Shown here: positions 18,336-62,658 of the stretch, in pieces
How the letters are laid out: each line of letters begins with the position of its first letter
How positions within the stretch are numbered: the stretch's first letter is position 1
IMG/VR virus record: IMGVR_UViG_2930461776_000001
Span: 1 to 64,000 of that record
Direction: 5' to 3' (one strand)
Source: a virus
Lineage: Duplodnaviria; Caudoviricetes
Length of the DNA: 64,000 nt
Made by a program: the position numbers and the translations under genes
Notes under the pieces: model-generated
The model's input: the letters and a program-made list of their open reading frames with translations, nothing else
What the model was told of the DNA's origin: nothing
The model's database searches: none

Positions 18336-18530
18336 CGCGCGTTGACCCGCGCCCGCCGTTGCCGAGACCGAAGACAAGTCTCAGCACTCCGAGCCTTTCG
18401 GCCCGGAAGGTCCGTCACATCACCAAAGCGTAAGGACTTCGGTTTGAGTACGGTCTCTCGCTTCCGTCTGCCGTTGTTGCGGCAGGGTTGCGCCACCTGC
18501 CCGCCCCGCCTCCGCCTTACGGCGGGTGCG
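18336..18530 (-). ncRNA. Predicted TnpB omega/reRNA scaffold plus flank-derived guide
   Basis: Hairpins CCGGGCCGAAAGGCTCGG and GCTGAGAC..GTCTCGGC before the CAACGG end; position matches known TnpB RNAs. Boundaries are approximate. Confidence 0.55.
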
Positions 18531-19971
18531 GGTAGCGCGGGACTTCTGGTCGGCTCCACGAGGCTTCGACGCCACCGGGGCGGCGTCCTGGTCTCCGGCC
18601 ACTCCGGTACCAGTCATGCAGGTCGCCGCGAGCGCGGCGAGGTTGCGGGCTGCGTTGTCATCCCGGTCGATGACCAGGCCACAGGCGTCGCATTCGTAGG
18701 TCCGGACGTGCAGCGGCAGCTTGGCTTTCACTGCGCCACACCCGGAGCAAGTCTTGGAGGATGGGTACCAGCGGTCTGCGACCACCAGGCGGGTGCCGTG
18801 GCGTTGCCGGGCCTTGTAGTCGAGTTGGCGGCGGATCTCGCCGAATCCGGCGTCGGCGATCCTGCGGGCCATGCGCTGGCTACGGAGCATGCCGGCAACG
18901 TTGAGGTCCTCGACCACGATCGTGCCGTACTCGGCGGCCACGGCGGTCGTCAGCTTGTGCAGGGCGTCTTCGCGGAGGTTCGCCACTCGGTAGTGGACGC
19001 GATTGCGTGCGGCATTCGCCTTCTCCCAGCGACGAGATGGCTGCTGGCCGGTACGCCGGTCGGGGCCCTGGCGGCGGGCGACGACGCGGGAGGCGCGGCG
19101 CAGTTCCTTGCGCGCCCGGTCATAGTGGCCCGGGTTGGCCACGGTGCGGATCTCGCCCGTGCTGTCGGCCATCACCGCGAGGGTCTTCACGCCAAGGTCG
19201 ATCCCGACGGCAACGTCCGGGCGGGTGACGCGGATGATCTCCCGCTTCACCTCGACCTGGAACGAGGCGAACCATCGTCCGCGTTCATGCCGGACGGTCG
19301 CAGACAGGATGCGCGCGGTCCCGGCCTGTATGTGGCCGAGCAGCTTGTGCGTGGGCTCTTGGGTTCGGATCGCGCCCAGCCGGGGCAATGTGACGTGCCG
19401 GCCGTCGGCGTCCACGCGGATCGTGCCGGTGGTGAACCGGCAGGAGAGACGCGCCTTCCGCTTCGACTTGAAACGGGGCGCACCCATCCGCTTGCCGCGC
19501 CGCTTGCCGTTCTTCGACTTCGCGTAGTTGTCGAACGCGGCCGACGCGTTGGCGAGGCCGGTGTTGTACGCCTCCTTGGAGTTCTCCCCCCACCAGGCGG
19601 TGAAGCGCGGGTCGGTGCGCTTGGCCTCGTTGAACGCCTTCCGCAGCGACGGCAGCGACCATGGTCGCCTCTCCGTCAGTGCTGCCTCCGGGACGCCGTA
19701 GGACTCCTCGGCCCTCCGCTGCCACCAGGAGGCGGTCACCCAGCCGACAGCCCAGTTGTACGCAGCCCGGGCCGCACCGCAGTGGGAGCGAAGCGCGCGT
19801 TCCTGAGTGGTGTTGGGGTCCAAGGCGAAGCGGTACGCCTGCACCACGAAGCCGGGCTGCGACTGGAACCTCTTCACCTTCACATCCGACCGGTAGGGGC
19901 GGTGCCTGGAATGGGCTCTGACCTGCTGTTTCGCTCTGTTCAGTCTACCAAAATCCTTGCCTGCGCGGCCC
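18356..19971 (-). mobile_element. Non-autonomous IS607-type TnpB-only element
   Basis: tnpB with no tnpA. Right end reads ...GGCAACGG; CCGTTG is present at both junctions (18356-18361 and 19970-19975). Confidence 0.75.
18420..19883 (-). CDS. tnpB: RNA-guided endonuclease TnpB
   Basis: QAYRFALDP N-terminus; RuvC GIDLG, VVEDL, DRDDNAA; Zn finger CSGC/CDAC. Start GTG at 19883 or 19877. Confidence 0.92.
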   Translation of the reverse strand: MKVKRFQSQPGFVVQAYRFALDPNTTQERALRSHCGAARAAYNWAVGWVTASWWQRRAEESYGVPEAALTERRPWSLPSLRKAFNEAKRTDPRFTAWWGENSKEAYNTGLANASAAFDNYAKSKNGKRRGKRMGAPRFKSKRKARLSCRFTTGTIRVDADGRHVTLPRLGAIRTQEPTHKLLGHIQAGTARILSATVRHERGRWFASFQVEVKREIIRVTRPDVAVGIDLGVKTLAVMADSTGEIRTVANPGHYDRARKELRRASRVVARRQGPDRRTGQQPSRRWEKANAARNRVHYRVANLREDALHKLTTAVAAEYGTIVVEDLNVAGMLRSQRMARRIADAGFGEIRRQLDYKARQRHGTRLVVADRWYPSSKTCSGCGAVKAKLPLHVRTYECDACGLVIDRDDNAARNLAALAATCMTGTGVAGDQDAAPVASKPRGADQKSRATRTRRKAEAGRAGGATLPQQRQTEARDRTQTEVLTLW

Positions 19972-20052
19972 GTTGGGGCGCCCGCCCCCACGTCCCCCGC
20001 CCACCTGTCACCCGCCCCACTGAGACAACCCGTCAACAAGGAGACCAAGGCC

Positions 20053-20373
20053 ATGACCAGCACTGATCTTCTCCCGCCGCCGAGCCCCGCCCTCACCGTC
20101 CACCAGGCCGCCGCTGCTCTCCGCCGTACCGCCGAGTGCGCGGTCGCCGCGATGGCCCGCAACGACTATTGGGCAGGCGGCTGGCAGCGCGGCGTGACGA
20201 ACGCGATCAGCGGCTACGAGGGCGACCTGGCCGCGTTGTTCAGCCCCGAGATGGCTGTCGAGGTGGCCGACTGGCTCGACGAGGTGGCCTCTGCTGCGGC
20301 CCGGCGTGGTGAACCGCTTCCGCCGCTCGCCCTCACGATCGCCAGCGCCCTCGCCGCCCACCCCGCCCCCTGA
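20053..20373 (+). CDS. Hypothetical protein
   Basis: AAGGAG RBS. Confidence 0.6.
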   Translation: MTSTDLLPPPSPALTVHQAAAALRRTAECAVAAMARNDYWAGGWQRGVTNAISGYEGDLAALFSPEMAVEVADWLDEVASAAARRGEPLPPLALTIASALAAHPAP

Positions 20374-23233: not shown

Positions 23234-23493
23234 CCATCGCCGAGCTCCGCCGCCAGCTCCTCGAACTCCAGCACCTGCCCGACAGCACACTCGTCGTCCT
23301 CGCCAAGGACGCCGAAGGCAACGGCTTCTCACCAGCCGTCGAAGCGATCCCCGGCATGTACCTCGCAGACACCACCTGGTCCGGCGGGCACTACCTCACC
23401 GAGGAACAGCGCCTCGCCGAGACGGATCCCGACGAGTGGTCACAGGCCCCGGACGACGCCATGCCCGCGGTCTTCCTCTGGCCCGTCAACTGA
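23230..23493 (+). CDS. Conserved phage hypothetical protein
   Basis: VVLAKDAEGNGFSP...AVFLWPVN. Confidence 0.65.
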   Translation: MTIAELRRQLLELQHLPDSTLVVLAKDAEGNGFSPAVEAIPGMYLADTTWSGGHYLTEEQRLAETDPDEWSQAPDDAMPAVFLWPVN

Positions 23494-23573
23494 CCACCCC
23501 GGCCGCCCCCAGCCCGGGGGCGGCCCGCACCCTCCCCGGCGCACACCCAGCCGAACAACCACGGAGACAACGC

Positions 23574-23936
23574 ATGACCGAACAGCCCTGCCCCTTCTGC
23601 GAGATCGTCGCCGGACGCGCACCCGCCACCATCGTCCACGAATGGCCCGAGGCCATCGCGATCGTCCCGCTCAACCCCGTCGTCGAAGGCCACCTGCTCG
23701 TCCTCCCACGCGAGCACGTCCGGGACTTCACCGACTACCCCACCGTCTCGGCCGCCACGATGCTCTGCGCCGCCGAACTCGTCGCAGGTATGGGCGCCTA
23801 CAACCTGATCACCAGCAAGGGGCGGCCCGCCACGCAGAGCGTGTTCCACCTCCACCTGCACCTCGTACCCCGCGCCGAGAATGACGGGCTGGCGCTGCCC
23901 TGGTACAGCGGGCGATCACGCAAGGCGCACACGTGA
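23574..23936 (+). CDS. HIT family nucleotide hydrolase
   Basis: CPFCEI, P...GHLLVLP..H, QSVFHLHLHLVPR. Confidence 0.9.
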   Translation: MTEQPCPFCEIVAGRAPATIVHEWPEAIAIVPLNPVVEGHLLVLPREHVRDFTDYPTVSAATMLCAAELVAGMGAYNLITSKGRPATQSVFHLHLHLVPRAENDGLALPWYSGRSRKAHT

Positions 23937-24090: not shown

Positions 24091-24252
24091 ATGACCGCCG
24101 CCGTCCAACTCGCCTACGACTGCGAGCCGATATGGGACCTCGACGACGCCGTCTACATCGAAGCCGGCGACCGCGACCTCCTCGGCCAACACGCCACCGC
24201 CAGGCAGATCACCAACGCCGACACCGCTGACCACGACGGGAGATACCTGTGA
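24091..24252 (+). CDS. Hypothetical protein
   Basis: AGGAGGG RBS. Confidence 0.5.
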   Translation: MTAAVQLAYDCEPIWDLDDAVYIEAGDRDLLGQHATARQITNADTADHDGRYL

Positions 24253-24611
24253 CCACACCCTCGTCACGCCGTGGACCGAGCAGCCGGCCGCTGACCCCCC
24301 GCCAGCTCAAAGCACTCCACCTAGCCGCCACCGGCCACACCCACCAGCAGATCGCCGGGCAACTCGGCATAGCCGCATCAAGCGTCGGCAAGTTCCACAC
24401 CGAGATCTTCCGCAAGCTCGGCGCCAAGTCCATGCCCCACGCCGTCCACCTCGCCTGGCAATCCGGGATCCTCCGCCGCGAACGCCACGGCGACCACGCC
24501 GGCTACGCCGCCCACCACTACCGCGGCGAAACACCCTGCGACCTCTGTAAAGCCGGGGAACGCAAGTACCGGAATGACCGCCGCAACCAGACCAAGGAGC
24601 AAGCAGCATGA
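24249..24611 (+). CDS. LuxR-type HTH regulator with C-terminal His/Cys motif
   Basis: LTPRQ..L...G.T..QIA..LGI...V..H..IFRKLG. Confidence 0.8.
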   Translation: MTTPSSRRGPSSRPLTPRQLKALHLAATGHTHQQIAGQLGIAASSVGKFHTEIFRKLGAKSMPHAVHLAWQSGILRRERHGDHAGYAAHHYRGETPCDLCKAGERKYRNDRRNQTKEQAA

Positions 24612-25222: not shown

Positions 25223-25543
25223 CTACGGCGCGAACACGTGATACCCGGCCAGGCAGACCACGGACTGGTTGTACGCCGCCAGAGCCATCTCGTAGGCCCG
25301 CTGCTGGCCCGCCATCACCGCACCCCACACGAGGCCCCCCACCACAACCAGCAGGCCGATCAAGACCGCGCCCGTCACCGCCAGCCAGATGCCAGCGCCG
25401 ATCGACAGCAGGGCCGCCCAGAACTTCAGGTCCGGCTCACCCGGCGGGGCATACCGGCCGCGGTGCGGGGACTCGGCCGGCAGGGATTCCCAGTACCCGC
25501 GCAGCTGCTGAACGTTCATCGACTTGCAGTTGGGACACTCCAC
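25223..25543 (-). CDS. Zinc-ribbon two-TM membrane protein
   Basis: CPNC N-terminus, two transmembrane helices, C-terminal CLAG..F. Confidence 0.6.
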   Translation of the reverse strand: MECPNCKSMNVQQLRGYWESLPAESPHRGRYAPPGEPDLKFWAALLSIGAGIWLAVTGAVLIGLLVVVGGLVWGAVMAGQQRAYEMALAAYNQSVVCLAGYHVFAP

Positions 25544-25838
25544 CGTTGACCCCCGAGGCCGCGCCAAGTTGACGCTTGAGCGTCCGCGGAAGCGGAGCCT
25601 CCAGCAAGGCGAACGAAGGGGGTGTGAGCGGGCTCACCGAGCGAGCGCAACAGGGACATCAGCCGCCTCGCGCGTGTGCACGCACTAAGGCCGGGCTGCG
25701 CCCCCGAATATTGCTACCGCGGAAGCGGGAGTGTTTGCCAGCCAGTGTTGAGTAACCCCGTGTAGGTCTTTTAGGGCCCAACTGGTGGACTGTTCATACG
25801 TGAGGCGTTCATGCATGAAGGCTTCACCAGTGTCACCT

Positions 25839-26183
25839 TCATGGAGATCCACTCTGTGGAGTGTCATGGACGGTCAGGATCGTGACGAAGTCTCCCCCGT
25901 TCGGCTGCCCCTTCGGCACTCGCGTCTTGGCCCGGGTCATATAGCCGGCCGCCTCCAGCTCCTGGAAGGCTCGACGGAACGCCCGCTTACTCTCCGCCTG
26001 CGCCCCGCGGTGCCGGTCGGCGGACTCCCACAGCTTGGCCGCGTTCGTCTGCCAGCCCGGACGCTGGGTGAGCATTTGGATCAGGACCATGCGGGCGAGG
26101 GCGCTGAGCCGCTCGTCGAACACGAGGTCGTTGGGGATCTGGACGAAGTTCTTGCGGAGCTTCGAGCGCTCGACTATCAGCAC
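25839..26183 (-). CDS. Standalone wHTH resembling a replication-initiator N-terminus
   Basis: NFVQIPN...D.RLS..AR...W......RRAFQELEAAGY..R; AGGGGG RBS. Confidence 0.65.
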   Translation of the reverse strand: MLIVERSKLRKNFVQIPNDLVFDERLSALARMVLIQMLTQRPGWQTNAAKLWESADRHRGAQAESKRAFRRAFQELEAAGYMTRAKTRVPKGQPNGGDFVTILTVHDTPQSGSP

Positions 26184-26293
26184 GCGTCGCCCCCTGACTG
26201 GCAGGGTGGGACGTGGATCGGTATGGTCATTGCAGTGCCTTACGTAGCTGGGGGTACGGATGCGGCGGGGTGATGACCCGCTCAAAGCGAAAA

Positions 26294-26324
26294 CGGCCGG
26301 AGGGATTCAGCCCCCTCCGGCCGT
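26294..26324. terminator. Hairpin
   Basis: CGGCCGGAGGG-loop-CCCTCCGGCCG. Confidence 0.55.
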
Positions 26325-26393
26325 CGCCGTTTTGCAGATAATTCTATGCGACGCCTGCGCCTGAAGTGGCGTAATCCGGGCGCCTATTGGACG

Positions 26394-26849
26394 TCATCGC
26401 GCGCGGTATTCCTCGCGCACGCGCACCAGACGGCCGTGCGTGGCCCGCATCTGGTCGAGCCGGGCCGCGAGCGTGTTGATGACCGTCTCCAGGCCGTCCG
26501 GGTCCAGGCCCTCGATGAAGTGGTCGTCGACCAGTTCGATCGTGGCGTAGGGGAGGCGCTGCGCGATGGTGGGGGAGTGCGGCTCGACCTTGATGACGGT
26601 CGACAGGACGCGGAACTCCTCCGGACGACCATCCGTGTTCACGGGCAGGGTCATCGCCTCGGGCGGGGTCCAGCACCACAGGTCTTCCGGGAACACTTCC
26701 CGGCCCTGTTCGTGCGAGTGGTCGAGCGTGCATCCGTCCATGCAGGTATACGCCATCGGCTCGCCGGTGTGGCGGTTGACGAAGCTCCACGTGCCAGGTG
26801 TGGCGGAAGACGCAGGCGACATCGCGGCGTCGGGCAGTAAGGTGTTCAT
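26394..26849 (-). CDS. Hypothetical protein (DUF6907-like)
   Basis: C..GC..DH...WC motif and C-terminal L..LAARL..MRA; GAGAGG RBS. Confidence 0.6.
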   Translation of the reverse strand: MNTLLPDAAMSPASSATPGTWSFVNRHTGEPMAYTCMDGCTLDHSHEQGREVFPEDLWCWTPPEAMTLPVNTDGRPEEFRVLSTVIKVEPHSPTIAQRLPYATIELVDDHFIEGLDPDGLETVINTLAARLDQMRATHGRLVRVREEYRAR

Positions 26850-27020
26850 CCAGACCTCTCTCTTTGCGGGGAGTGGGTTGTTGATCGGCGAGTTCGCGCT
26901 CGCCGGTGGAACGAGCCCGGTGTTCGCGCACCGGGCCGTTCGCGTTTCAGGGCCCAACGTAAGGCCGACTTCAGGGCCCAACCGGTCTCTAGGGTCACGG
27001 CTCCATTACGAGACTCCTAG

Positions 27021-27431
27021 TCAGTGCGGCAGTGCCTCGTCGAGGTACTCCTGCACCGGCCCGTACAGGCCGTAGGGCACGTAGTCGGAGATCTCCGAGT
27101 GGGCGACCCAGGCCACCGCGTCCAGCTCCTCCTCGTCCGCGACCTTCGCCTCGCCCTGGAGCACCTCGCACGCCGTGTACGACATGAGCCGGCCAGTCTT
27201 CGGGTGTACCCGCTCACCGAGCAGGCGGAGCGCCTTCACGGTCAGCCCGGTCTCCTCGTCGGTCTCACGCACCGCCGCGTCCTGCGCGCCCTCACCGGCC
27301 TCGATCGCGCCGGCCGGGAACTGCCACATCAGCTCGCCCTCGGAGATGCGGCGCCGGACCATCAGCACCCGGCCCTCGGCGACGATGATGGCGGCGCTGA
27401 TGCCGGGCTTCTCGGTGGTCGTCTCGGTCAT
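27021..27431 (-). CDS. Nudix hydrolase (pSAM2 Pif-like position)
   Basis: Intact Nudix box G-AIEAG-E-GAQDAAV-RETDEETGL. Confidence 0.9.
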   Translation of the reverse strand: MTETTTEKPGISAAIIVAEGRVLMVRRRISEGELMWQFPAGAIEAGEGAQDAAVRETDEETGLTVKALRLLGERVHPKTGRLMSYTACEVLQGEAKVADEEELDAVAWVAHSEISDYVPYGLYGPVQEYLDEALPH

Positions 27432-28066
27432 GCGATCGCCTCCAGGGCGTTCAGGATGGGCGGGTAGATCTGTTCCTGCGGGATGAAGCGGGTCAGGGCT
27501 GAGCGCGGCACCCAGGTCACGTCGATGTTCTCCACCGGGTCCCGGTTCGTCGCATCGCCCGCCAGATGGTCGGCGAGGAAGTACGAGGCCATCACCCCGG
27601 TCACCGGGTGGATGCGCTCGCCGAGCTGGTCGCGGACTGTGCAGTGCACGCCCGTCTCACCGTGCGTCTCCTGCACTGCCACCGTCGACGGGTCCACGCC
27701 CGGCTTGACCATGCCAGCCGGGAACTGCCAGCGCAGCTCCCCATCCCCGCGCCGACACACCAGCAGCACCTCGTCACCTCGCAGCACGACGGCTATCGCT
27801 ACCCGCAAAGCCTGCGCCTCCATGCGCGGGGCGGGCGGGCGCAGCAGGAGAGCGAGCCGTCGCTGCACTTCTTCACCCGCTTCCCGGTAGGCGATGTCGA
27901 GGATCTGCTGCACCTCGGTCCGGTGAACCATCTCCGGTTGCGCGTGCCACCGGCTGATGGTGCGCGGGGAGATGCCGAGGCGTTCCGCGAACGCCTCGTT
28001 GGTCATCCGCATGGCCTCTTGAAGCAGGCATGCGGTGCGGCCGGTCCAGGTGTCTACGACGTCCAC
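27428..28066 (-). CDS. XRE HTH fused to degenerate Nudix domain
   Basis: MTNEAFAERLGISPRTISRW plus G-MVKPG-V-DPSTVAV-QETHGETGV. Confidence 0.85.
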   Translation of the reverse strand: MDVVDTWTGRTACLLQEAMRMTNEAFAERLGISPRTISRWHAQPEMVHRTEVQQILDIAYREAGEEVQRRLALLLRPPAPRMEAQALRVAIAVVLRGDEVLLVCRRGDGELRWQFPAGMVKPGVDPSTVAVQETHGETGVHCTVRDQLGERIHPVTGVMASYFLADHLAGDATNRDPVENIDVTWVPRSALTRFIPQEQIYPPILNALEAIA

Positions 28067-28147
28067 AATGGGGCTCCCGTGCTCGCTGCGCTCGGGTCTG
28101 GCGGGGCGATGTCCACGCGGTGGCGCCGCCATGTCTAGGTGCTGCTG

Positions 28148-28483
28148 CTATGGCTGATCGATGTCAGGGCCGTGTCCTTCTGCCGCGCCCGCGCGGGGCG
28201 TTGACTCGGCGGCATGGTTAGCTTTCCCCCGCTTCGCACTGCGCCCCCTGGCAAGGGCTTCGGCCCAGGCGTAGCTACGCCCGAAGAGATCGCCCACTTC
28301 CGCCCACGTGCGTCCCTTGCGCAGCCCTTGAATGGCGCCCTGCTGAAGTGCGTAGAGCCTCTGGTCGCTCTCTGCCAGCCTTTGGCGTGCTTCGAGAGCG
28401 GCGCGGCCCCGCGCGAGCAGGTCGTCAATGGCTTCGACTTCGGCGACTTTCGCCTCCAGGGACTCCGTGAACGCATCTGTCAT
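28148..28483 (-). CDS. HTH repressor (Kor-like position), probably leaderless
   Basis: RTWAEVGDLFGRSYAWAEAL HTH; TTGAGA-N17-TACTCT lies just upstream of the ATG. Confidence 0.65.
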   Translation of the reverse strand: MTDAFTESLEAKVAEVEAIDDLLARGRAALEARQRLAESDQRLYALQQGAIQGLRKGRTWAEVGDLFGRSYAWAEALARGRSAKRGKANHAAESTPRAGAAEGHGPDIDQP

Positions 28484-28565
28484 GAGGTCAGAGTAGGAGT
28501 CAACACGCCAGTTCTCAAGATGGTGTTGACAGACCCTCAGGCAGCGTTCAGGATGGTGTTGAAGC
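28484..28565. promoter_or_regulatory. Divergent promoters with operator repeats
   Basis: TTGACA 28526-28531, N17, CAGGAT on +; GATGGTGTTGA at 28519-28529 and 28552-28562; inverted TCAACAC at 28500-28506. Confidence 0.65.
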
Positions 28566-28691
28566 CGAGGGCGCTCCACCGCCCAAAGCCTCAAGCACCG
28601 CTCCACCGGTGCGCACAAATGAAGACGGGCCGGACACCGCGACTCCACTCGCAGGCCGGCCCTAACCACCAGGTTCTGTAGAGGAGACCCT

Positions 28692-29309
28692 GTGGCTACC
28701 CAAGAGCTTACCGGCGCTCTCAACAGCGTCGATCACGGGGACACGCCCCCGCTTCCGCCGGCCGCCGTGTCCGCGCTGCGTTCCGCCACTGTGGCGGATG
28801 TGGTGGCCCGGCTGAAGGCCGACGGCGGCCTGTACGAGTGGACCGCCGTCCACGCCCTGGGCTGGGGCATGGGCCCGGCGCAGAACGACATCTCCGCGGC
28901 CGTCGAGGCCGCGGAAGCGGCCGGCCTGGTGCGCACCACCACGCTTCGCGGCAAGAAGATGGTGCAGCTGGCTTCCCGCGCGGACCGCGTGAACGTGCTC
29001 CGCGAGTCGATCGCCCGCCGTGCTCTGGCCAGCATCGGCACGCCGACGGACGCACGCATCCTGCGCATCGTCTTTTCCGGCCCGGTGTTGACGGTGGCCA
29101 CCGAGCAGCCGGGCCAGTACTTCCCCTTCGGCGTCGACACGTTCCGCCTCCCCACCGCGGACGAGACCGACCTGGAGCAGGACGAGCCGCTTGGCCTGTC
29201 CGAATGGGTGCTGGCCGACCAGTACGGCGGGTTCGGTGAGGACGAGGTCGAGCAGATGATGGCGGACGCGGCCAGCTACGCGGCCACGCTGCGGAAGGCG
29301 GTGGCCTGA
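28692..29309 (+). CDS. Hypothetical protein, first gene of transfer operon
   Basis: GAGGAG RBS. Confidence 0.65.
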   Translation: MATQELTGALNSVDHGDTPPLPPAAVSALRSATVADVVARLKADGGLYEWTAVHALGWGMGPAQNDISAAVEAAEAAGLVRTTTLRGKKMVQLASRADRVNVLRESIARRALASIGTPTDARILRIVFSGPVLTVATEQPGQYFPFGVDTFRLPTADETDLEQDEPLGLSEWVLADQYGGFGEDEVEQMMADAASYAATLRKAVA

Positions 29310-31696: not shown

Positions 31697-32983
31697 GTGA
31701 CCGCCACATCCGTCGAGAAGGTCAACGGCCACGCGCCGGGCTTCGACGCCGTCGCGCTCGCCAGGGCGGAGGCGATCCGGACCGAGGCCGACGCCAAGGC
31801 CGAAGCGCTGCGTATCGAGGCCAAGGGCAAGGCTGACGCCGAGCGCACCCTCGCCGGCGAGCAGGCCGAAGAGCTGCGCCTCGCGAACGAGCGCAAGCGC
31901 ATCCGACTGGAGAAGGACCAGGTCGACCACAAGGCCTACGTCGCCAAGAAGGCCGCCGAGACCGCGAAGTCCCAGGCCGAGCAGGGGAAGACCGAGCAGG
32001 CCGCGGCCGATGAGGAGGCGGCGGAGGCGCAGCTGCTGGCCGAGCAGGAGCGGGCCGAGCGCTGGTGGAAGTGGGGCGCTCGCGGCATCTACGCCGTCGG
32101 CCTGATCATCGCCGCCCCGGTGCAGTTCATGCACTTCTGGGACCGCGAGCGGCCCTTCCTCATCGCCGCCCCCGCCCTCCTGGAAGGCCTCGCCCTCGTC
32201 CTCGCCTTCGGCGCTGCATGGGCGGTCGCCCACCGCCGGGACGTCGCCCCCTACCGGGTCGGCATCATGCTCGGCGCCGTCATCGCCGCCGGCATCAACC
32301 TGTACGGCGGCCTGTACGACGCACGGATCGGCTTCAACGCCGGCCTGATCGGCGCCATCGCCTCCCTCGGCGGGCCGATCGTCCTCATGGCCTACGAGCA
32401 CGGCATCGCCCAGAAGGCCGACGGGATCCCGTCTTGGCGAGAGCGCCGAGCGGCCGAGAAGAAGGCCGAGGCGGATGCGGAGGCTCGTGCCGCTGCCCGC
32501 GCGGCCAAGGCCGAGGGGGAGGCGAAGGCCGCATCCGACAAGGCGGCCCGGGAGAAGGCGACCGAGGAGGAGCAGGCTCGCAAGGACGCCGACCGTGAAG
32601 CGGGGCACCCAGACGTGTGGGAGGTCGCCGACGCGATCCGTTCCGCACGCGGCTCGCGGTACGTCACGGACCAGATTTGGGCCGAGTCGTGGTTCCTCGT
32701 GACGGGCTGCAAGACGGTCGGCATCCGTGCCGAAATCGAAGAGCAGTCGCGCGCCGCGCAGGCCCACATGCGGACCGTCACCGGCGCCCCCGTCTTGGGC
32801 TCGTTGTCGCTGATCGAATCCCAAAAGGTCCCCCGCGCCAAGAAGGACCCGAACGCCCCCGACGGACGCCGCAACAACGGCGGCACGCCGCCCGTCCGTC
32901 GGCCCGGAGAGAGCGCCCCCAACCACCCCCTCGCCCGCGCCCAGGCTCGCGTCGAGCAGACCACCGAGAAGGACTCGCAGTGA
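31697..32983 (+). CDS. SpdB-like coiled-coil, four-TM transfer/spread protein
   Basis: N-terminal coiled coil, four transmembrane segments, charged C-terminus; coupled to traB. Confidence 0.65.
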   Translation: MTATSVEKVNGHAPGFDAVALARAEAIRTEADAKAEALRIEAKGKADAERTLAGEQAEELRLANERKRIRLEKDQVDHKAYVAKKAAETAKSQAEQGKTEQAAADEEAAEAQLLAEQERAERWWKWGARGIYAVGLIIAAPVQFMHFWDRERPFLIAAPALLEGLALVLAFGAAWAVAHRRDVAPYRVGIMLGAVIAAGINLYGGLYDARIGFNAGLIGAIASLGGPIVLMAYEHGIAQKADGIPSWRERRAAEKKAEADAEARAAARAAKAEGEAKAASDKAAREKATEEEQARKDADREAGHPDVWEVADAIRSARGSRYVTDQIWAESWFLVTGCKTVGIRAEIEEQSRAAQAHMRTVTGAPVLGSLSLIESQKVPRAKKDPNAPDGRRNNGGTPPVRRPGESAPNHPLARAQARVEQTTEKDSQ

Positions 32984-35064
32984 GCATCGAGACGACCCCC
33001 AGCAACGCGCCCGACCCGGAGTGGGACCGGCTCACCGCCACCCTCGTCAAGGAGCCCGAGCCGGCCCGGTTCGAGTTCGAGAAGCGGCCCCGCCCGGCGT
33101 GGATGATGTCCGGCGAGCAGCTCCGCCAGTGGGCCGTGTACGCCGGCGACAACACGGTCGACGCGATCCGCTTCCACGTCACCCACAGCCCCTACTACCT
33201 CGGCTGGTCCGTGCGCGGCTATCGGCGGCTCTGCTTGCACTGGTGGGCCGCCCGGCACGACGACTACCGGCAGCAGATCGCCACCGCCAAGCAGATGCTG
33301 CGCGCCTCCAAGGGCAAGCCCGCCGACGAGGCCAAGTACAAGGCAATCGTCGACGTGCGCCGCGCCGAGTACAAGGCGCACAAGAAGCGCCACTGGATCC
33401 GCACCGGGATCTGTGGACTCACCGTCGCCGGTGGCAGCACGGCCGCATTCGTGCTCGGCAGTTGGTGGGTTCAACTGCTCCTCACTCTCGCCTACATCGT
33501 TGTTGGCGCCTGCTTCGGCCGGCCCGCCGAGCCCGCCGTGAAGCCGATCCAGGCACCGACCCGCACCAGCCACCTGGGCGAGGACACCATGCGCCGTGTC
33601 CTCGTCGAGGCCGGTGTCGTCCCTGAGAAGCGCGGCGACGAGATCCGCGGCGTCGGCATCCCCCACACCGAGGGCCCCGGCATCGCCTACGCCGTCCACA
33701 CCCCCTCGGGCATCCCGGCGTCGGTCGCCGTCGCGAAGAAGCAGCAGGTCGCCGCCGCGCTCGGCGTGCACTCCGACTGGCTCGACTTGTCTGTCGGCAG
33801 CGTCGAGACGCTGCTGCTGATCTGGGTCGCCAGCGAGGACCCGTTCGCCACGACTCGGGTTTCCCCGCTCGTCGGGCACAAGGGTGCTCTTGACCTGTGG
33901 AACGACGGGGCCCCGCTCGCGTTCGGCAAGCGCGGCAACACAATCCTGTCCCGGCTGCGCGACGCGATGATGCTCGTTGGCGGCGCCACCCGCCGAGGAA
34001 AGGGCATGTTCATCGCCAACCTGAACCTGGCCGGGGCGAAAGATGTGCGGGTCAACCTTCGACTCTTTGACGGCAAGGCCTCCGGTGAGCACAACTCGTT
34101 CGGTGGGCTGCTGGCTACGTTCGTAAAGAAGAACCCCGAGCGTCTCGCCCTGTTCCTCCGCGCCGTGCTGGAAGACCTGGACCGCCGCGCGGACTTCCTG
34201 GACGACCGCAACAAATCCAAGCTGAGCGAAGACCTCATTGAGGCGATCGGCGGCATCGAACTCATCGTGATCGACGAGCTCGCCACCTACAGCGCGAAGC
34301 AGACCAGCCCCTACCGCGACGAGATCATCGAGAGCCTGTGCCAGATCGCGGCCGTCGGCGCCTCCCTCGGCGTGCTGCTGGTGTGCGCCACGCAAGTTCC
34401 CGAGGTGGAGGTCGTCCCGGCGCGCCTGCGCCAGAACCTCATCTCGCGCGCGGCGATGAACACCGAGTCGCCGAGCGCTTCCAACGTCATCCTCGGCGAC
34501 GGCATGGCGGGCCAGGGGTTCGACTCCTCCCTGATTCCTCTCAATCAGCCGGGCAGGTTCTGGTTCAAGTCCCCCGACCTTGGCACGATCCCGCTGCGCA
34601 CGTTCCTCACGGAAGACGACGACAAGCCGCCGATCATTGCCGACGCCTACGAGCTCCGAAAGGCGGCCGGCCGGTTGCCTGGTCAGTGGAAGGACCCAAT
34701 CGAGGTCAGGTTGCTGGCCTGGACCGGCGTCTCGTCCGCGGCCGGCGGGGAGCGAGGGAACGGGCGCATCGTCCGCGTCACCCTCTTGGAGAGGCTGGAG
34801 ACGATCGCCCGGTCCACCGACCGCGGGGGAGCGACGAACGCCGAGGTGTTCGCCGCGCTGGCCGCGACGAGCAGCGCCAAGTACGGGCGGCAGGACGGCG
34901 AGACGGACCGCGGCTGGACCACCCGAGTCGGAAAGATCCTCAAGGACGAGATCGAGGCCCTCGGTGTCGATCTGGACGTCAAGCGGGTCACCGGCCCGGA
35001 CGGGGAGCGCACTCCCGGCTACCTCCTCACCGACATCATCGCCGCCCGGAATGTCCGCACTTGA
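32980..35064 (+). CDS. traB: TraB-like FtsK/SpoIIIE DNA translocase
   Basis: N-terminal TM pair; Walker A GATRRGKG; DGK; Walker B IVIDEL; ATQ.P; ILGDG; C-terminal wHTH ending GY...DI..A. Confidence 0.85.
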   Translation: MSIETTPSNAPDPEWDRLTATLVKEPEPARFEFEKRPRPAWMMSGEQLRQWAVYAGDNTVDAIRFHVTHSPYYLGWSVRGYRRLCLHWWAARHDDYRQQIATAKQMLRASKGKPADEAKYKAIVDVRRAEYKAHKKRHWIRTGICGLTVAGGSTAAFVLGSWWVQLLLTLAYIVVGACFGRPAEPAVKPIQAPTRTSHLGEDTMRRVLVEAGVVPEKRGDEIRGVGIPHTEGPGIAYAVHTPSGIPASVAVAKKQQVAAALGVHSDWLDLSVGSVETLLLIWVASEDPFATTRVSPLVGHKGALDLWNDGAPLAFGKRGNTILSRLRDAMMLVGGATRRGKGMFIANLNLAGAKDVRVNLRLFDGKASGEHNSFGGLLATFVKKNPERLALFLRAVLEDLDRRADFLDDRNKSKLSEDLIEAIGGIELIVIDELATYSAKQTSPYRDEIIESLCQIAAVGASLGVLLVCATQVPEVEVVPARLRQNLISRAAMNTESPSASNVILGDGMAGQGFDSSLIPLNQPGRFWFKSPDLGTIPLRTFLTEDDDKPPIIADAYELRKAAGRLPGQWKDPIEVRLLAWTGVSSAAGGERGNGRIVRVTLLERLETIARSTDRGGATNAEVFAALAATSSAKYGRQDGETDRGWTTRVGKILKDEIEALGVDLDVKRVTGPDGERTPGYLLTDIIAARNVRT

Positions 35065-45909: not shown

Positions 45910-47025
45910 ATGCCCTCCCTATCGACCTTGATCGACGACTTCAACGACGCGACGATCGGGCCGAACTGGGGCAACAGCTACGGGGGAGTCTCCGAATCCG
46001 GCGGCAAAGCCCACGTCCCCTGCGGCACCGGCTACGCCGGTTACCAGACCGCCTACAGCTGGACCCTTGCAGGCGCCACCTTCTACGTCGCGGTCACCAC
46101 TGTCCCGGCCGCGTCGACGGCCACCGAGGCCTACGCGTCGGTGTTCGTCAACCATCCGGACATTGCCACCAATGGCACCCGCATCGGCTTCGTCATCAAC
46201 ACCGTCACCGGCCAGTTGAGGTGCAAGAACGACACCGGGTACTTCGACGCGGGCAGCGTCGACCTCACCTACTCGGCGGTCACGCACAAGTTCCTGCGGC
46301 TTCGTGAGGACGGCACCAACGTCTACTGGGACACGTCGCCCGACGGGACGACGTGGACCAACCGGCGCACCCTCGCCACCCCAGCCTGGGTGACCGCCTC
46401 GGTCGACACCTGCGCCCTGGACCTATCCGCTCACCGCGACGCAGGCACTGCTGACGAGGCGCAGTACGACATGGCGAATACGTTGTCGGACGGTGCCGTC
46501 TACACCGGCACCGCCGCAGGCAGCGCCGAGTCCGGGGCCACCGCGACCGGCATGCTCGCCGCCTCCGGCTCCGCCACCGGCAGCGCACAGTCGAACGCCA
46601 CCACCGTCGGCCTCACCGTCGTCCACGGCACCGCAACCGGCAGCGCGCAGAGCGACGCGAGCGCCACAGGCGTAGGCGACACGCTTCCGGAGGTGGCTGG
46701 ATTGACCGCCGGAACCTGGGACTTGAAGATCGAGCAGGGCGCCACCTTCGTCCAGACCTTCACCGCCCTCGACGACGGCTTCACCTGGGACGGCTGGACC
46801 GCCCGCGCCCAGATCCGCTCCGCACCCGCCGACTCCGGCGACCTCCTCATCACCCTCACCCCCTACCTGACCGTCGACGGCCCGTCCGTGCAGATCGCCC
46901 TGCCGGCCACCCAGACCCAGACCCTCACCCGCAACGGCGTGTGGGACCTCGAGATGGTGTCCGGCTCCACCGTCGTGCGCTGGCTGGAGGGCAAGGTCAT
47001 CGTGTCGCTGGAGGTGACCAGGTGA
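45910..47025 (+). CDS. Putative minor tail protein
   Basis: DDFND N-terminus, S/T/A repeats, C-terminal IEQGATF...AQIR...WDLE. Confidence 0.65.
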   Translation: MPSLSTLIDDFNDATIGPNWGNSYGGVSESGGKAHVPCGTGYAGYQTAYSWTLAGATFYVAVTTVPAASTATEAYASVFVNHPDIATNGTRIGFVINTVTGQLRCKNDTGYFDAGSVDLTYSAVTHKFLRLREDGTNVYWDTSPDGTTWTNRRTLATPAWVTASVDTCALDLSAHRDAGTADEAQYDMANTLSDGAVYTGTAAGSAESGATATGMLAASGSATGSAQSNATTVGLTVVHGTATGSAQSDASATGVGDTLPEVAGLTAGTWDLKIEQGATFVQTFTALDDGFTWDGWTARAQIRSAPADSGDLLITLTPYLTVDGPSVQIALPATQTQTLTRNGVWDLEMVSGSTVVRWLEGKVIVSLEVTR

Positions 47026-49979
47026 GAGTCCAGGTCACCGGCGACAACGTGCCCGACGCCGTAGTCGACGGCCGCCAAGGAATCGTCGTAGAAGCCAACG
47101 TCGGCGCCGTCTTCGCCGTCAACGGCCAAGTCGGCTCCGTCAACCTCACCGGCGTCACCGGCTGGGCCAACGTGCAGCGCCTCGGAGCCGTAGGCAACGG
47201 CATCATCGACGACACCGCCGCCATCCAGGCCGTCATCGACGCCTGCCCGCCCGGCGGGACCGTCTACCTGCCCCGCGGCGTCTACAAGACCACGACAACT
47301 CTGGACCTGAAGAACGGCGTCAGCCTGCGCGGCGAGCACGCCAACCTCATGGTCGGCCCCGGCATGACCGGCACCGAATACCCGTGCTTCATCCAGCCCG
47401 CCGCCACCTTCACCGGCACAAGCGTCATCCAGATCATCGGCGACACCGACGGCGGCCACCCGAACATCTCCGGCGAACAGCGCATCACCGACCTCATGAT
47501 TGACGGCAGCCTCCTCACCGGCAGCGTTGACGGCCTCTACGCACGCGGCAACGTACAGAACGTCGTCCTCGACAACGTCACGATCCGGCAGGCCACCAAC
47601 AACGGCATCGTCACCGCCTCCCGCTCCGACGGCACCTACCCGTACTCGTGGCGCCTCCACCACGTCATGGTCGACAACTGCCACGCCAACGGCATCCTCC
47701 TCACCGGCTGCACCGACGTCACCCTCGACGACGTCCAGGCAATCGGCTGCTGGGGGCAGGGCTTCATCCTGGAGAACTGCACCAACGGGCAGATGCTGTC
47801 CTGCCGCGCCGAATGGAACGGCAGCCACGGCTACCACATCACAGGCGCGTGGGGCGACTGGGCCGGTTCCGGCGGCATGCAGATCACCGGCTGCCAGACC
47901 GACCGCAACGGCCAGCACGGCCTTCTCGTCGACGCCACCGGCAATACCCCCATCCTCGTCAGCGGATTGCAGACCCGCCGCGACGGACGCAACGGCGGCA
48001 GCGGAGGCGGAGGCTTCGCCGGACTCGCCGTCATCGGCGCCACCGTCCCCGTAGTCGTGGACGACATCACCTGCTACCCCGGCGTCGACGACGGCGACGC
48101 CGGCACCAACTCGCCTCAGTACGGGGCACGCCTGTCCGGCTCCACCACGGTCCTGCTCGACAACGCCTACCTGCACGCGAACACCGCCGGCCTGCTCGAC
48201 GACGGCACCAACACGACCGTCTCCTACGGCGCCAACCTCGTCACCGCCGCCGGCGCCACCACGCAGACCGTCCGCACCCTGTCCAACCCCTACAAGGGCA
48301 TGACCGCGGCCCGGTACGTCGTCGCCAACAACGCCTCAGCACGCGAGAAGGCACGCGCCGACTACCTCTGCGACGGCATCGCCGACCAGGTGCAGATCCA
48401 GGCCGCGATCGACGCCGTCCAGGCTGAGGGCGGCGGCATCGTCCAGCTGTCCCCGGGCGGCTTCAACATCGCCGCCACCATCGAGATCAACGGCACCCTC
48501 GACGAAAACGACCCCCGCACAGTCACCCTCAAGGGCTGCGGGCAGCAGGTCACCGAACTCACCGTCGCATCCGGCGTCACCGGCATCACCATCTCCGACT
48601 GGGCACAGATCCACCTGGAGAAGCTCTGCCTGTTCATCTCCGGCGCGGGGATCGGCATCAAGTCGATCGGCGTCAACGACGTCGGCGACAACAACAACGT
48701 GTCGTTCTGGCACAGCTCGTTCCGTGACCTGCGGATCAACGGCGGTTTCGTCACCACGGCAACCACGTGGGCCATGGAGCTCGGCATGCCATGGCGAAGC
48801 ACCTTCGAGAACATCGAGATCGAAGGCTGCCGCAACGGCATCAAAATCATCAACGACGCGACCATGCAGAACGCAGGCGACTGCGTCTTCTCCCGGTTCT
48901 TCGTCGAGATCGTCGGCGCCGGAGGCTACGCCCTCTACGTCGACTCCATCGACGGCAACATGAACCAGAACACCTGGGTCGACTTCGAAGCCGGCGCCGG
49001 GACCGGCCGATCGGGCAACACCGGCATCTGGCTCGGCGGCACCGCAGGCACCGCAAGCCAGCGCTTCATCGGCAACCTGAACCTCGAACGGTTCGCCACG
49101 CTGATCAATGTCGCCAACGGCAACAGCAATGTCTTCGACGCGAACTACATCACCTGCGAGGGCGTAGGAGCCACGAACAAGGGCTTCGTCACCGGCACGA
49201 ACAGCTACAACAACACGTTCCGGTCCGCCTACTTCAACATCGCCTCGGGCGACACCGTTCAGGTCATCGAAGACGCCAACACCACCTCGAACGCGCCGAA
49301 CATCTTCGAGCGGATCCGCATCGAGAACAACACCAGCGGAACCGTCACCTACTCGAAGACGACGTCCACCGTCCTTCGGGACATCACCACGTTCAACACC
49401 GGCAACGCCATGCCGGACGGGCTGCTTCAGTACCCGCTGAGCACCGTCAACGACGCCACCTTCACCCCCGCCGACCATGGCCTCGTCGCCTGGACCCACG
49501 ACCCCGCCACACTCCGGTCGGCGTCCAACGCCACAACGAGCGGCACCGTCTACCTGTGCAAGGTCAAGGTCGTCAACCGTTCGACGCTGGTGTCCAACGT
49601 CATCGTCGGCATCGAAGCAGCCGGAGTCACCCTCACCTCAGGCCAGTGCTTCGTCGGCCTCTACAACAGCAGCGGCACCCGCCTCGCCGTCAGCGCCGAC
49701 CAGTCGGGCAACTGGACCTCGACCGGCCTGAAGACGATCGCACTCACCGCTGCACAGACCCTCGCCGTCGGCTCCTACTACGTCGCGATCCTCGCCGTCG
49801 GAACAACCCCGCCACAGTTCGCCATGGGCGCCGGCGGGGCCACCACTGCCAGTGCTGGCCTCACCGCCAGCACAGCCCGGTTCCTCACCGGCCCGACCGG
49901 CCAGACGTCGCTGCCGTCATCGATCACCCTGTCCAGCCAGACCGTCACCTCAGGCGCCCGCTGGGCCGCACTCAGCTAG
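47022..49979 (+). CDS. Tailspike/depolymerase with two right-handed beta-helix domains
   Basis: NV..LGA.G.G..DDTAAIQA.ID...GGTVYLP.G.Y and a second DG.AD..QIQAAID...GG.V.L..G.F; Asn/Gly ladders. Confidence 0.8.
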   Translation: MRVQVTGDNVPDAVVDGRQGIVVEANVGAVFAVNGQVGSVNLTGVTGWANVQRLGAVGNGIIDDTAAIQAVIDACPPGGTVYLPRGVYKTTTTLDLKNGVSLRGEHANLMVGPGMTGTEYPCFIQPAATFTGTSVIQIIGDTDGGHPNISGEQRITDLMIDGSLLTGSVDGLYARGNVQNVVLDNVTIRQATNNGIVTASRSDGTYPYSWRLHHVMVDNCHANGILLTGCTDVTLDDVQAIGCWGQGFILENCTNGQMLSCRAEWNGSHGYHITGAWGDWAGSGGMQITGCQTDRNGQHGLLVDATGNTPILVSGLQTRRDGRNGGSGGGGFAGLAVIGATVPVVVDDITCYPGVDDGDAGTNSPQYGARLSGSTTVLLDNAYLHANTAGLLDDGTNTTVSYGANLVTAAGATTQTVRTLSNPYKGMTAARYVVANNASAREKARADYLCDGIADQVQIQAAIDAVQAEGGGIVQLSPGGFNIAATIEINGTLDENDPRTVTLKGCGQQVTELTVASGVTGITISDWAQIHLEKLCLFISGAGIGIKSIGVNDVGDNNNVSFWHSSFRDLRINGGFVTTATTWAMELGMPWRSTFENIEIEGCRNGIKIINDATMQNAGDCVFSRFFVEIVGAGGYALYVDSIDGNMNQNTWVDFEAGAGTGRSGNTGIWLGGTAGTASQRFIGNLNLERFATLINVANGNSNVFDANYITCEGVGATNKGFVTGTNSYNNTFRSAYFNIASGDTVQVIEDANTTSNAPNIFERIRIENNTSGTVTYSKTTSTVLRDITTFNTGNAMPDGLLQYPLSTVNDATFTPADHGLVAWTHDPATLRSASNATTSGTVYLCKVKVVNRSTLVSNVIVGIEAAGVTLTSGQCFVGLYNSSGTRLAVSADQSGNWTSTGLKTIALTAAQTLAVGSYYVAILAVGTTPPQFAMGAGGATTASAGLTASTARFLTGPTGQTSLPSSITLSSQTVTSGARWAALS

Positions 49980-57477: not shown

Positions 57478-57921
57478 ATGGGCGCTCGTGGACCTGTCGG
57501 TAAGCGCTCTGAGGAGCGCATGGGCCATCGCTCGAAGAATGAGAAGGACTCGATCACAAAGGCCCCGTCGGGGACCCCGGATGACCTGCCGGACCTGCCG
57601 GACCCGAGTCCGCTGTGGGATCCGATCGCAACTGACTGGTACCTGTCGCTGCGCAAGTCGGGGCAGGCCGCGTTCTACCAGCCCTCAGACTGGGCGGTTG
57701 CCCGGTATGCCGCGGAGCTGATGTCGCGGGTATTGGACTGCTCGGAGCGAGGCCCGAACGGGCAGCTCGTCGCCGCGCTCAATTCGGTGATGGCATCGCT
57801 TCTCACGACTGAGGGCGACCGCCGCCGGGCCCGCATGGAGCTGGAGCGGAAGAAGCCCGCAGGGCGCAGCGATGCCGACGTGACGGTGCTCGATGACTAT
57901 CGCGCTGCCTTCGGTGGCTGA
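57478..57921 (+). CDS. Terminase small subunit
   Basis: RGP..KRSEER..H; SGQ..FYQPSDW; L.TEGDRRRAR.ELE. Confidence 0.85.
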   Translation: MGARGPVGKRSEERMGHRSKNEKDSITKAPSGTPDDLPDLPDPSPLWDPIATDWYLSLRKSGQAAFYQPSDWAVARYAAELMSRVLDCSERGPNGQLVAALNSVMASLLTTEGDRRRARMELERKKPAGRSDADVTVLDDYRAAFGG

Positions 57922-61128: not shown

Positions 61129-61921
61129 TTCGACGAGCGTTGTCCGTTGGCGCCAGGCGCAGGCTGGTCTGTCCACGCTGCTGTTGCGTGATCTGCGTGG
61201 GCTGCGGCGTCTCATCAACCCGAACCGTTTGCAGGCGACGGTGCCGACGTGGATCGAGGCGGTAGCGGCCCTGGTGGCACGCTATGCAGAGGCGTCCGCA
61301 AGCCTGGGCGCCGACTTCTACGACGGTGAGCGTGAGACGGCCAGTGTGCCCGGGACGTTCACGGTGCCACTGGCTGATCCGCCTCCGGATGAGCAGACGT
61401 CGAACTCGCTGCGCTGGGCCACGAAGGACTTGTGGCCGCGCGACGAGCGTGAAGCGTCTGTAGCTCAGCTGGAGCCGCTCGACATCCGCCTGGAGGCGGC
61501 AATGTCGAAGGCGGACGGCGCTGTCGGCCGGCTGGTGTTGAACGCGGGCCGGGAGACGGTGCAGGAGGCTGTCCGGGAGGACCGCGGGGCTGTCGCCTAT
61601 GCGCGGGCCGCGGCTCTCGGCTGCTGCTCGTTCTGCGCTCTCATGTCCAGCCGTGGCGCGGTCTACAAGGACCGCGGGACGGTCGGTGAGGACGCCAATG
61701 ACCGGTTCATCGGCAACGACAGTGTGATCAAGTATCACAACTACTGCCGCTGCCAGCCGATCCCCGTTTTCCGAGGTCAGGCGTTCGAGCTGTCGGCGAA
61801 GGCCCAGGAGTGGGATCGCATCTACCGCGAGTTCGCCCAAGGGCATCCTGGTGAGCAGCTTCGGCTCTTCCGGGCCGCGCTCGCGGAGCAGCGTGCGCTA
61901 GCGGATCCCGGATCTTTCTGA
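61112..61921 (+). CDS. MuF-like/capsid maturation protein
   Basis: AR....C.FC..M.SRG.VY...H..C.C..P; between portal and scaffold. Confidence 0.75.
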   Translation: MATSDSSTSVVRWRQAQAGLSTLLLRDLRGLRRLINPNRLQATVPTWIEAVAALVARYAEASASLGADFYDGERETASVPGTFTVPLADPPPDEQTSNSLRWATKDLWPRDEREASVAQLEPLDIRLEAAMSKADGAVGRLVLNAGRETVQEAVREDRGAVAYARAAALGCCSFCALMSSRGAVYKDRGTVGEDANDRFIGNDSVIKYHNYCRCQPIPVFRGQAFELSAKAQEWDRIYREFAQGHPGEQLRLFRAALAEQRALADPGSF

Positions 61922-61984
61922 TCAACGAGGTCGCCCTGGTGGCGGCCTTTCTCATTTCCACAGCCCCTGGAGGGCCGATTCGTC

Positions 61985-62647: not shown

Positions 62648-62658
62648 GAGAAGGAATC

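Follow-up and report, generated by a model that had tools for sequence, protein, structure and literature searches.

A coupled pair of paralogous Nudix genes, one fused to an HTH domain, as a candidate regulatory module of prophage-like TraB elements in actinomycetes

The window analysed here is a stretch of 64,000 nucleotides (positions 1 to 64,000 of IMG/VR record IMGVR_UViG_2930461776_000001, an 87.9-kb "provirus" of the Caudoviricetes), and our subject is a pair of Nudix genes on its minus strand. The upstream gene of the pair (27428-28066, minus strand) starts with GTG and encodes a 212-residue protein, in which a domain of the helix-turn-helix (HTH) type is followed by a Nudix domain; hereafter, this protein is termed the fusion. 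Its 212-residue form was 100% identical to the protein-collection entry P0003. An alternative ATG start at 28132 would yield a protein of 234 residues (22 extra), and a GGGAG was found by eye approximately 8 nt 5' of the GTG. The downstream gene (27021-27431, minus strand) encodes a canonical small Nudix hydrolase of 136 residues (P0001), hereafter the partner, and its G+C content at third codon positions (GC3) was 0.96. The stop codon of the fusion gene and the start codon of the partner gene overlap by 4 nt (ATGA, 27428-27431).

Both proteins matched the Pfam family NUDIX (PF00293), with 80.7 bits for P0001 and 51.5 bits for the fusion against a cut-off of 21.1. BLASTP alignment of the two gave 46 identities in 122 positions (38%, E 5e-24), and the motifs WQFPAG and LGER.HP.TG..(M/A)SY were common to both Nudix domains. 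A structural model of the fusion by AlphaFold2 (AF2), for which 41 relatives were used, showed a mean predicted local distance difference test (pLDDT) score of 91.6. Its N-terminal domain (residues 9-75; 27842-28042, minus strand) consisted of five helices, residues 9-18, 23-30, 34-42, 50-62, and 65-75, with pLDDT above 90, and was assigned as XRE/CI-like HTH on the basis of the model and sub-threshold matches to HTH families; residues 34-42 (PRTISRWHA) form the predicted recognition helix. A low-confidence linker connected this domain to the C-terminal Nudix fold (residues 88-212; 27431-27805, minus strand), which was assigned by Pfam, AF2, fold search, and the count of Nudix boxes. Foldseek matched the model to Nudix structures with a probability of 1.00. 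The identities listed for solved Nudix structures were 12-26%, and by these values the fusion appears nearer to its partner than to any solved Nudix protein. The nearest relatives in sequence and fold were generic small enzymes of the MutT, Ap4A, NudC, or RppH type.

The intact Nudix box of the partner (GAIEAGEGAQDAAVRETDEETGL, residues 41-63; 27243-27311, minus strand) fits the pattern G-x5-E-x7-RE-x2-EE-x-G, and the box residues E44, G46, E47, R55, E56, E59, and E60 were invariant in all 31 aligned partners. The corresponding segment of the fusion (GMVKPGVDPSTVAVQETHGETGV, residues 118-140; 27647-27715, minus strand) fails the pattern G-x5-E-x7-R-E-U-x-E-E-x-G-U, since V stands in place of the first E, Q in place of the R, and G in place of the leading E of the EE pair. 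In the numbering of Escherichia coli MutT, these and one further change are E41>K, E44>V, R52>Q, and E56>G; neither E53 nor E57 is altered. We parsed 111 boxes of the fusion family, namely those of the window itself, of 34 genome loci, and of 76 among the 80 viral loci (four were missed by the search pattern). The residue equivalent to E41 was Lys in 111/111 and that equivalent to E44 was Glu in 1/111; the R52 equivalent was Arg in 34 and Gln in 55 of the 111; the E56 equivalent was never Glu (0/111; G 44, A 43, D 19, S 4, N 1); and the equivalents of E53 and E57 were Glu throughout (111/111). Because the same losses recur across the 111 boxes, the altered box is, on this pattern, a fixed family signature under selection and not decay. 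One clade retains RE..DE and is changed at the E41 and E44 equivalents only. According to the available portions of a study on E. coli MutT, E53 and E57 are direct metal ligands whose contributions to the catalytic constant (kcat) are 10^4.7 and at least 10^5, respectively, and E56, no metal ligand, contributes 25-fold (PMC9173781). Since both direct metal-ligand glutamates are kept, the Nudix domain of the fusion may remain able to bind a metal-nucleotide complex and might have some activity.

These results largely agreed with the initial annotation, which had been made from the letters of the window: the two coupled genes, their common WQFPAG and LGER motifs, the intact box of the partner, and the E>V, R>Q, and E>G changes of the fusion box were all recovered at the same positions, and a fourth change, E>K in 'VKP', had been overlooked. 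The fusion had also been called catalytically degenerate. Its box is altered in a conserved manner in 111 sequences, but a dead enzyme does not follow from this, since the E53 and E57 equivalents were kept in 111/111.

We then asked how widely the two genes occur together. A word-indexed protein search with the fusion yielded 1426 relatives, of which the best 120 were all 192-262 residues long and named only "NUDIX ..."; the source annotations of relatives read 'NUDIX hydrolase' or '8-oxo-dGTP diphosphatase', and the name 'Pif' was absent among the best 120 of the 1426. In a set with one genome per species, 40 loci were identified in Streptomyces, Kitasatospora, Amycolatopsis, Actinosynnema, Haloechinothrix, Lentzea, and metagenome-assembled genomes of Pseudonocardiaceae, 34 of them with a full-length fusion. 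A canonical Nudix gene lay directly 3' of the full-length fusion gene in 33 of 34 genome loci, and the contig of the 34th ends at this point. By script, a 4-nt overlap (ATGA or GTGA) was counted in 26 of the 33; in the other seven, the first start codon overlapped by 20-29 nt, and two of them (L006 and L018) were wrong-frame picks that carry ATGA as well. In IMG/VR, the two genes adjoined in 80/80 kept loci (52-87% identity; contigs mostly of 50-127 kb), a set that overlaps with the genome loci (for example, L007 is L056). The pair can also be one polypeptide. A HMMER pass over representatives at 50% identity gave 1972 matches, including many in which one chain carries an altered and then a canonical Nudix domain, and the order HTH, altered Nudix, canonical Nudix was found in P0127, P0140, and P0124; HTH_3 precedes the tandem in P0127 (49.7 bits, above the cut-off) and P0140. 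The proposal that the two genes form a coupled unit was thus borne out by the adjacency in 33/34 and 80/80 loci, the overlaps, and the single-chain fusions.

In Pseudonocardiaceae and Lentzea loci (L024-L041), the altered Nudix domain was joined to another HTH-like N-terminus ('...GTLSVRHLQRL...RPATARLLERIF...'), different from that of the window, from which we concluded that the altered domain recurs as a regulator module. This second type, for example L025:3584-3991 (minus strand), had no adjacent canonical Nudix gene and lay a few kb beyond TraB. Elsewhere, in apparently low-GC bacteria, the N-termini preceding tandem Nudix domains were EAD11, alpha/beta-hydrolase (esterase), DNA_processg_A (SLOG-like, DprA), and HD-CE (P0149, P0158, P0159, and P0171), architectures typical of nucleotide-based conflict systems.

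The distribution of the unit was patchy. In the genus to which the genome of locus L009 belongs, 21 of 301 sampled genomes (7%) had a full-length relative, one copy each, as is typical of mobile DNA. The full fusion was present in no record of the plasmid collection (tblastn, 0/20 records at coverage of at least 80%; five weak DNA matches), and two neighbourhoods around partner-like Nudix genes on plasmids added nothing informative. Among 50,697 records of cultured phages, the fusion query gave a single match, to the Nudix domain only, in a Microcystis phage, and megablast of the segment 24000-36000 gave no match.

The region directly 5' of the fusion gene (28098-28176, minus strand) contains seven G[AC]CA[CTG] words that are phased at 11 bp and resemble an operator array. 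The words lie at -110, -99, and -88 and then at -69, -58, -47, and -36 from the GTG; four of them fall within the 81-nt spacer that separates the fusion gene from the next gene upstream, which encodes a small protein, and the other three within the 3' end of that gene. The pattern GMCAY-N6-GMCAY-N6-GMCAY had two matches in the 64-kb window, both in this array, and none in 100 shuffles. More distant relatives carry at the same place 3-6 copies of RTGCA, often as the palindrome RTGCAY, with an exact spacing of 11 bp. Three RTGCA words at this spacing were found upstream of the fusion gene in 18 loci and at one extra site elsewhere (L021:11527-11553, minus strand), approximately 0.5 kb beyond the partner gene, where the regulator may have a further target. 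The spacers of the arrays varied between loci and the words were retained.

The type of word was then compared with the predicted recognition helix in 115 loci. Of 33 loci with the helix S.RT[IV][ST]RW (class B, as in the window), 31 had at least four GMCAY words and none had three or more RTGCA words. Among 76 loci with the helix ..R[TSA]VA.W (class A), at least three RTGCA words were present in 65 (in phase in 54) and four or more GMCAY words in none. Six further loci had other helices and, by eye, other words (GGCAS, GTAYA). Three viral loci (L081, L083, and L086) carry a Nudix domain of the RTGCA clade, yet their helix and upstream region are both of the window type, which indicates that the HTH and the array travel together. 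The gene upstream of the fusion is a small protein of approximately 80-111 residues in Streptomyces and an XRE plus coiled-coil protein in Pseudonocardiaceae; Streptomyces type-A and Pseudonocardiaceae loci have RTGCA words and near-identical helices, but unrelated upstream genes, which argues for the fusion rather than the upstream gene as the binder. The phased words thus point to the fusion as the putative binder, and the word type appears to track the recognition helix, as in a heteroimmune autoregulatory repressor. On these results, the fusion resembles a regulator that binds DNA and has an operator-like array of its own.

The Streptomyces element that carries the pair was characterised from its gene content. 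Replication genes of phage type (P22 AR N-terminal domain, PDDEXK, AAA_24, and DnaB) and genes for terminase, portal, and capsid (57893-63615) are present in the window; beyond it, the record (67814-82422 of locus L045) encodes a 1394-residue protein of tape-measure size and a tyrosine integrase. In the region 31697-35064, a TraB/FtsK-like protein scored below the Pfam cut-off and matched phrog_1358 with E 6e-33, and a 428-residue protein was taken as Spd-like by eye and has no Pfam or PHROGs family. A RapZ-C protein and a DUF6907 protein are also encoded between the replication and structural genes. No classical CI-type repressor was found near the integrase, and a truncated leftward open reading frame (ORF) at 1-450 has no assignment. 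DnaB, its loader, a LuxR protein, the 428-residue protein, and TraB were common around the pair in relatives; because these carry the same genes, the mixture of phage and TraB genes is a recurrent type and not an accident, and the element looks like a hybrid of a phage and an actinomycete integrative and conjugative element (AICE). By gene content, it is a prophage with putative TraB/Spd-like genes rather than an AICE of the pSAM2 type.

Here, we propose a model for the pair, starting from what was directly observed, namely, its anatomy, conservation, coupling, fused forms, phased words, and the co-variation of word and recognition helix. Most likely, the pair serves to couple gene control of the element itself to a nucleotide, and, with a confidence only a little above even, we favour the view that it is a self-contained regulatory module of temperate actinomycete prophage-like TraB elements, composed of a Nudix-sensor repressor and a coupled paralogous hydrolase. 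The upstream gene would encode a CI/XRE-type repressor whose C-terminal Nudix fold has been re-tooled from a hydrolase; with two metal-ligand glutamates kept and three other box residues lost, this fold would act as a nucleotide-binding and probably dimerising sensor. The fusion would bind the 11-bp-phased words just 5' of its own gene and thereby repress or tune the leftward operon. Adjacent palindromic words one turn apart would suit HTH dimers, the Nudix fold serving as the putative dimer and ligand domain. The partner, a translationally coupled sister paralogue, would stay active and either cleave the same nucleotide or pair with the sensor, setting the threshold of the switch, and the output may be maintenance, induction, or immunity. 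A role in pock formation, conjugal immunity, or counter-defence may be suggested by analogy. We hold more tentatively, and regard as doubtful at present, the further proposal that the fusion acts as master immunity repressor for a large, undescribed family of 50-90 kb temperate actinomycete elements combining phage heads and tails with TraB transfer; it would be induced by a nucleotide and not by RecA, the sister enzyme would hold this nucleotide below the threshold, and heteroimmune types would arise by exchange of the HTH together with the array.

Several observations weigh against the model. All HTH models of Pfam remained below their curated cut-offs for the fusion, the best being Xre-like-HTH (21.5 against 25.8) and HTH_3 (21.2 against 23). 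Fold and sequence searches of PDB and BFVD gave generic Nudix neighbours only, with no HTH-Nudix structure and no clue to the substrate. The fusion keeps the two glutamates that carry the most weight in MutT according to the accessible text of PMC9173781 and thus may itself be an enzyme. The link between helix and word reflects few independent events, as it was drawn from clades of common ancestry and overlapping sets of loci, and it has exceptions: 11 of the 76 class-A loci had fewer than three RTGCA words and 2 of the 33 class-B loci fewer than four GMCAY words. A lenient phase statistic (5-mers with at most one mismatch) averaged 3.90 at period 11, compared with 2.63-3.42 at other periods and 2.86 in shuffles, which is only moderately above the controls, and the statistic is too lenient to decide the matter. 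In Streptomyces, the small upstream protein could be the binder of the array. Finally, a consensus scan of 26800-28900 for promoters and terminators found none of either.

The constituents of the model have counterparts in known systems. NrtR is an ADP-ribose-sensing repressor of NAD metabolism with an N-terminal Nudix-like domain and a C-terminal winged HTH. As in NrtR-type factors, a Nudix fold would be the sensor of an HTH repressor in the fusion. The order of its domains is, however, reversed (HTH 9-75, Nudix 88-212), and its HTH is XRE/CI-like instead of a winged helix. The present system differs further from NrtR in the active Nudix paralogue coupled to it in translation, the location on a mobile element, and the operator-like phased 5-nt words. 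Repressors of the lambda CI type, the basis of heteroimmunity, consist of an N-terminal HTH and a C-terminal S24 peptidase domain that undergoes RecA-stimulated self-cleavage. The fusion resembles them in its N-terminal HTH and C-terminal domain for oligomerisation or signal, in a leftward gene set against lytic genes, and in the joint change of operator words and recognition helix between relatives. It differs in that its C-terminus is a Nudix fold, not an S24 peptidase, and induction would be by a nucleotide instead of self-cleavage.

On pSAM2, korSA and pif are said to lie in one operon, a statement ascribed to Possoz in 2003. The portions of the reviews at our disposal state that KorSA and the Nudix protein Pif keep pSAM2 integrated (te Poele 2008, PMC2440964) and that Nudix genes are common on AICEs (te Poele 2008, PMC2440964; Ghinet 2011, PMC3218068). 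The likeness to korSA-pif lies in a repressor and a Nudix protein with intact motif on a TraB-type actinomycete mobile element, and an intact-box Nudix gene overlaps the repressor gene by 4 nt here, as expected for a module of the KorSA-Pif type. The fusion, however, had no GntR match in Pfam, only XRE-like HTH matches, and KorSA, which belongs to the GntR family, has no Nudix domain, whereas the repressor here itself bears one; the comparison with Pif was made by description only. In addition, the present element is a prophage that carries genes for head and tail. According to passages of the same reviews, a three-gene cluster mdp-nud-xre occurs on pMEA100, pSE211, AICESco5349, and Frankia AICEs (PMC2440964, PMC3218068). 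There too an XRE regulator neighbours a Nudix hydrolase, but, as far as these descriptions go, xre and nud are separate genes accompanied by an HD phosphohydrolase, and no HD gene lies beside the pair here. The same domain combination, by the available description, occurs in an HTH+nudix gene of Streptomyces mobile DNA, mentioned as possibly CI-like (PMC9513070), the same guess as ours. One-component transcription regulators with Nudix or WYL sensors were described by Iyer et al. 2022, as stated in the available part of that article (PMC9503650). Within the accessible portions of this literature on Nudix regulators and immunity, a coupled altered/intact pair, a fixed box signature, fused tandems, and phased arrays are not described, and such genes may be listed in AICE supplementary tables or among the unshown data of PMC9513070. 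Hence, Nudix-sensor HTH repressors and pairs of a repressor and a Nudix protein were already known, and the upstream phased arrays and their link to the helix are new here.

Other readings of the same data were considered. The fusion might be an active Nudix hydrolase, perhaps slower or re-specified, that binds DNA, so that two enzymes with different substrates exist and no sensor or eraser. The E53 and E57 equivalents, direct metal ligands in MutT by the portion of the study cited above (PMC9173781), are kept in 111/111, and in the RE..DE clade only those of E41 and E44 are changed. We nevertheless judge this reading unlikely: the E41>K charge reversal is fixed in 111/111, E44 is lost in 110/111, position 56 is never Glu, and an adjacent paralogue that keeps all box residues in 31/31 is hard to square with catalytically neutral changes. 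Somewhat less likely still is a pseudo-dimer tethered to DNA, in which the fusion would be a non-catalytic HTH scaffold subunit that joins the active partner in a putative heterodimeric hydrolase at a specific DNA site, with no ligand switch; it might clean nucleotides at that site or strip 5' caps or triphosphates from nascent transcripts. Nudix enzymes often act as dimers, altered-then-canonical tandems exist in one chain with many N-termini, the two genes are translationally coupled, and both proteins have RNA pyrophosphohydrolases of the RppH type as neighbours in sequence. The second HTH-altered Nudix type of Pseudonocardiaceae loci, however, lacks an adjacent canonical Nudix.

A function in defence or counter-defence, in which the unit would detect and degrade a nucleotide that serves as immune signal, or a nucleotide pool, in a conflict with other phages or elements and the HTH would turn on helper genes, seems improbable to us. 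The PADLOC candidate PDC-S07 matches P0001 (E 7.4e-17) and P0003 (E 2.1e-7), matches that have no curated cut-off and may reflect the Nudix fold alone; PDC-S07 is a prediction-stage candidate that, in the accessible text of one paper, appears in a table of predictions only (PMC11514479). Relatives of the tandem do carry EAD11, SLOG-like (DNA_processg_A), HD-CE, or esterase N-termini, and Pif confers conjugal immunity according to the available portions of PMC2440964. The unit lies, however, in the element's own regulatory block and not in a defence island, and cultured phages are without it, apart from the one Nudix-only match in 50,697 records. We give very little credence to the idea that the genes are housekeeping Nudix duplicates carried as cargo, with the repeats belonging to another feature such as an origin, a partition site, or a clt-like site. 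Plasmid centromeres such as parC of R1 are also known to contain arrays of 11-bp repeats, and the source annotations read only 'NUDIX hydrolase' or '8-oxo-dGTP diphosphatase'. Against cargo stand the strict adjacency and coupling across genera, the fixed non-canonical box, the co-variation of helix and word, and the patchy occurrence of 7% (21/301 genomes) typical of mobile DNA.

If the preferred model of a Nudix-sensor repressor with a coupled hydrolase is correct, it bears on how the Nudix protein Pif keeps an actinomycete element quiet or immune, a question that the 2008 and 2011 reviews, in the portions available, treat as open since 2003 (PMC2440964, PMC3218068). The pair offers a cleaner handle on it, with a candidate sensor, an enzyme, and a DNA site within approximately 1.2 kb, and natural specificity variants of helix and array are at hand for swap experiments. 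A ligand, if found, would name a nucleotide signal governing lysogeny or transfer in Streptomyces and would provide a portable nucleotide-responsive repressor/operator pair. The altered and canonical Nudix tandems with conflict-system domains suggest that a sensor-plus-eraser logic extends beyond actinomycetes.

The gene immediately upstream of the fusion (28148-28483, minus strand; GC3 only 0.71) encodes 111 residues, including a segment that is HTH-like by eye ('...GRTWAEVGDLFGRSYAWAEALARGR...'), and is the probable first gene of the operon. Its product matched no Pfam, PHROG, or PADLOC family, and its same-strand homologues end 5' of the fusion in Streptomyces loci. A divergent plus-strand ORF (28214-28681) was rejected as a candidate, since conservation at the protein level was seen for the small product of the same strand; GC3 was low, approximately 0.72, in both frames. 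Two copies of TCAACACCATC[TC]TGA, 33 bp apart, were found just 5' of the small gene (28515-28562, minus strand) and were the only two matches in the window with at most one mismatch. The proximal copy overlaps a promoter-like pair noted by eye (TTGAGA-17 nt-TACTCT). The copies recur at the same offsets (-496/-463) in L003, L006, L008, and L023, to which the small gene is common, and one copy was present in L009; a further operator, serving either the small protein or the fusion, may lie here.

On the other side of the pair, a DUF6907 gene (26394-26981, minus strand; 75.7 bits) begins 39 nt 3' of the stop codon of the partner gene. It is followed by a leftward gene matching N-terminal families of phage DNA-binding proteins or replication initiators (25839-26285, minus strand) and by the last gene of the block (25223-25567, minus strand), whose 114-residue product begins with a CxxC zinc ribbon and has a hydrophobic stretch, both seen by eye. 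This product had no family match and may be a membrane-anchored protein of the exclusion type; its homologues were found near the pair in 16 of the 80 viral loci. The three genes may belong to the leftward transcription unit of the pair. In a GC3-filtered ORF list, 25223-28483 was the only leftward block besides TnpB in an otherwise rightward window, a layout that fits a region for lysogeny, maintenance, or immunity.

A scan of the window for tRNA genes found none. A HIT-domain protein, a nucleotide-handling type (23436-23936, plus strand; 61.6 bits), is encoded 3 kb from the pair and beside a LuxR-type regulator (24249-24611), and homologues of it occurred in the neighbourhood of the pair in L004, with 82% identity, as well as in 8 of the 80 viral loci. 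An IS605-type OrfB/TnpB with a Cas12f-like TNB domain (18420-20162, minus strand) lies between the replication and regulatory blocks. Upstream of the terminase and away from the tail genes, a 1012-residue pectate-lyase-like beta-helix protein (46941-49979, plus strand) and an LtfC-like protein (45910-47025, plus strand) are encoded; these may be a depolymerase tail spike or fibre in an unusual position.

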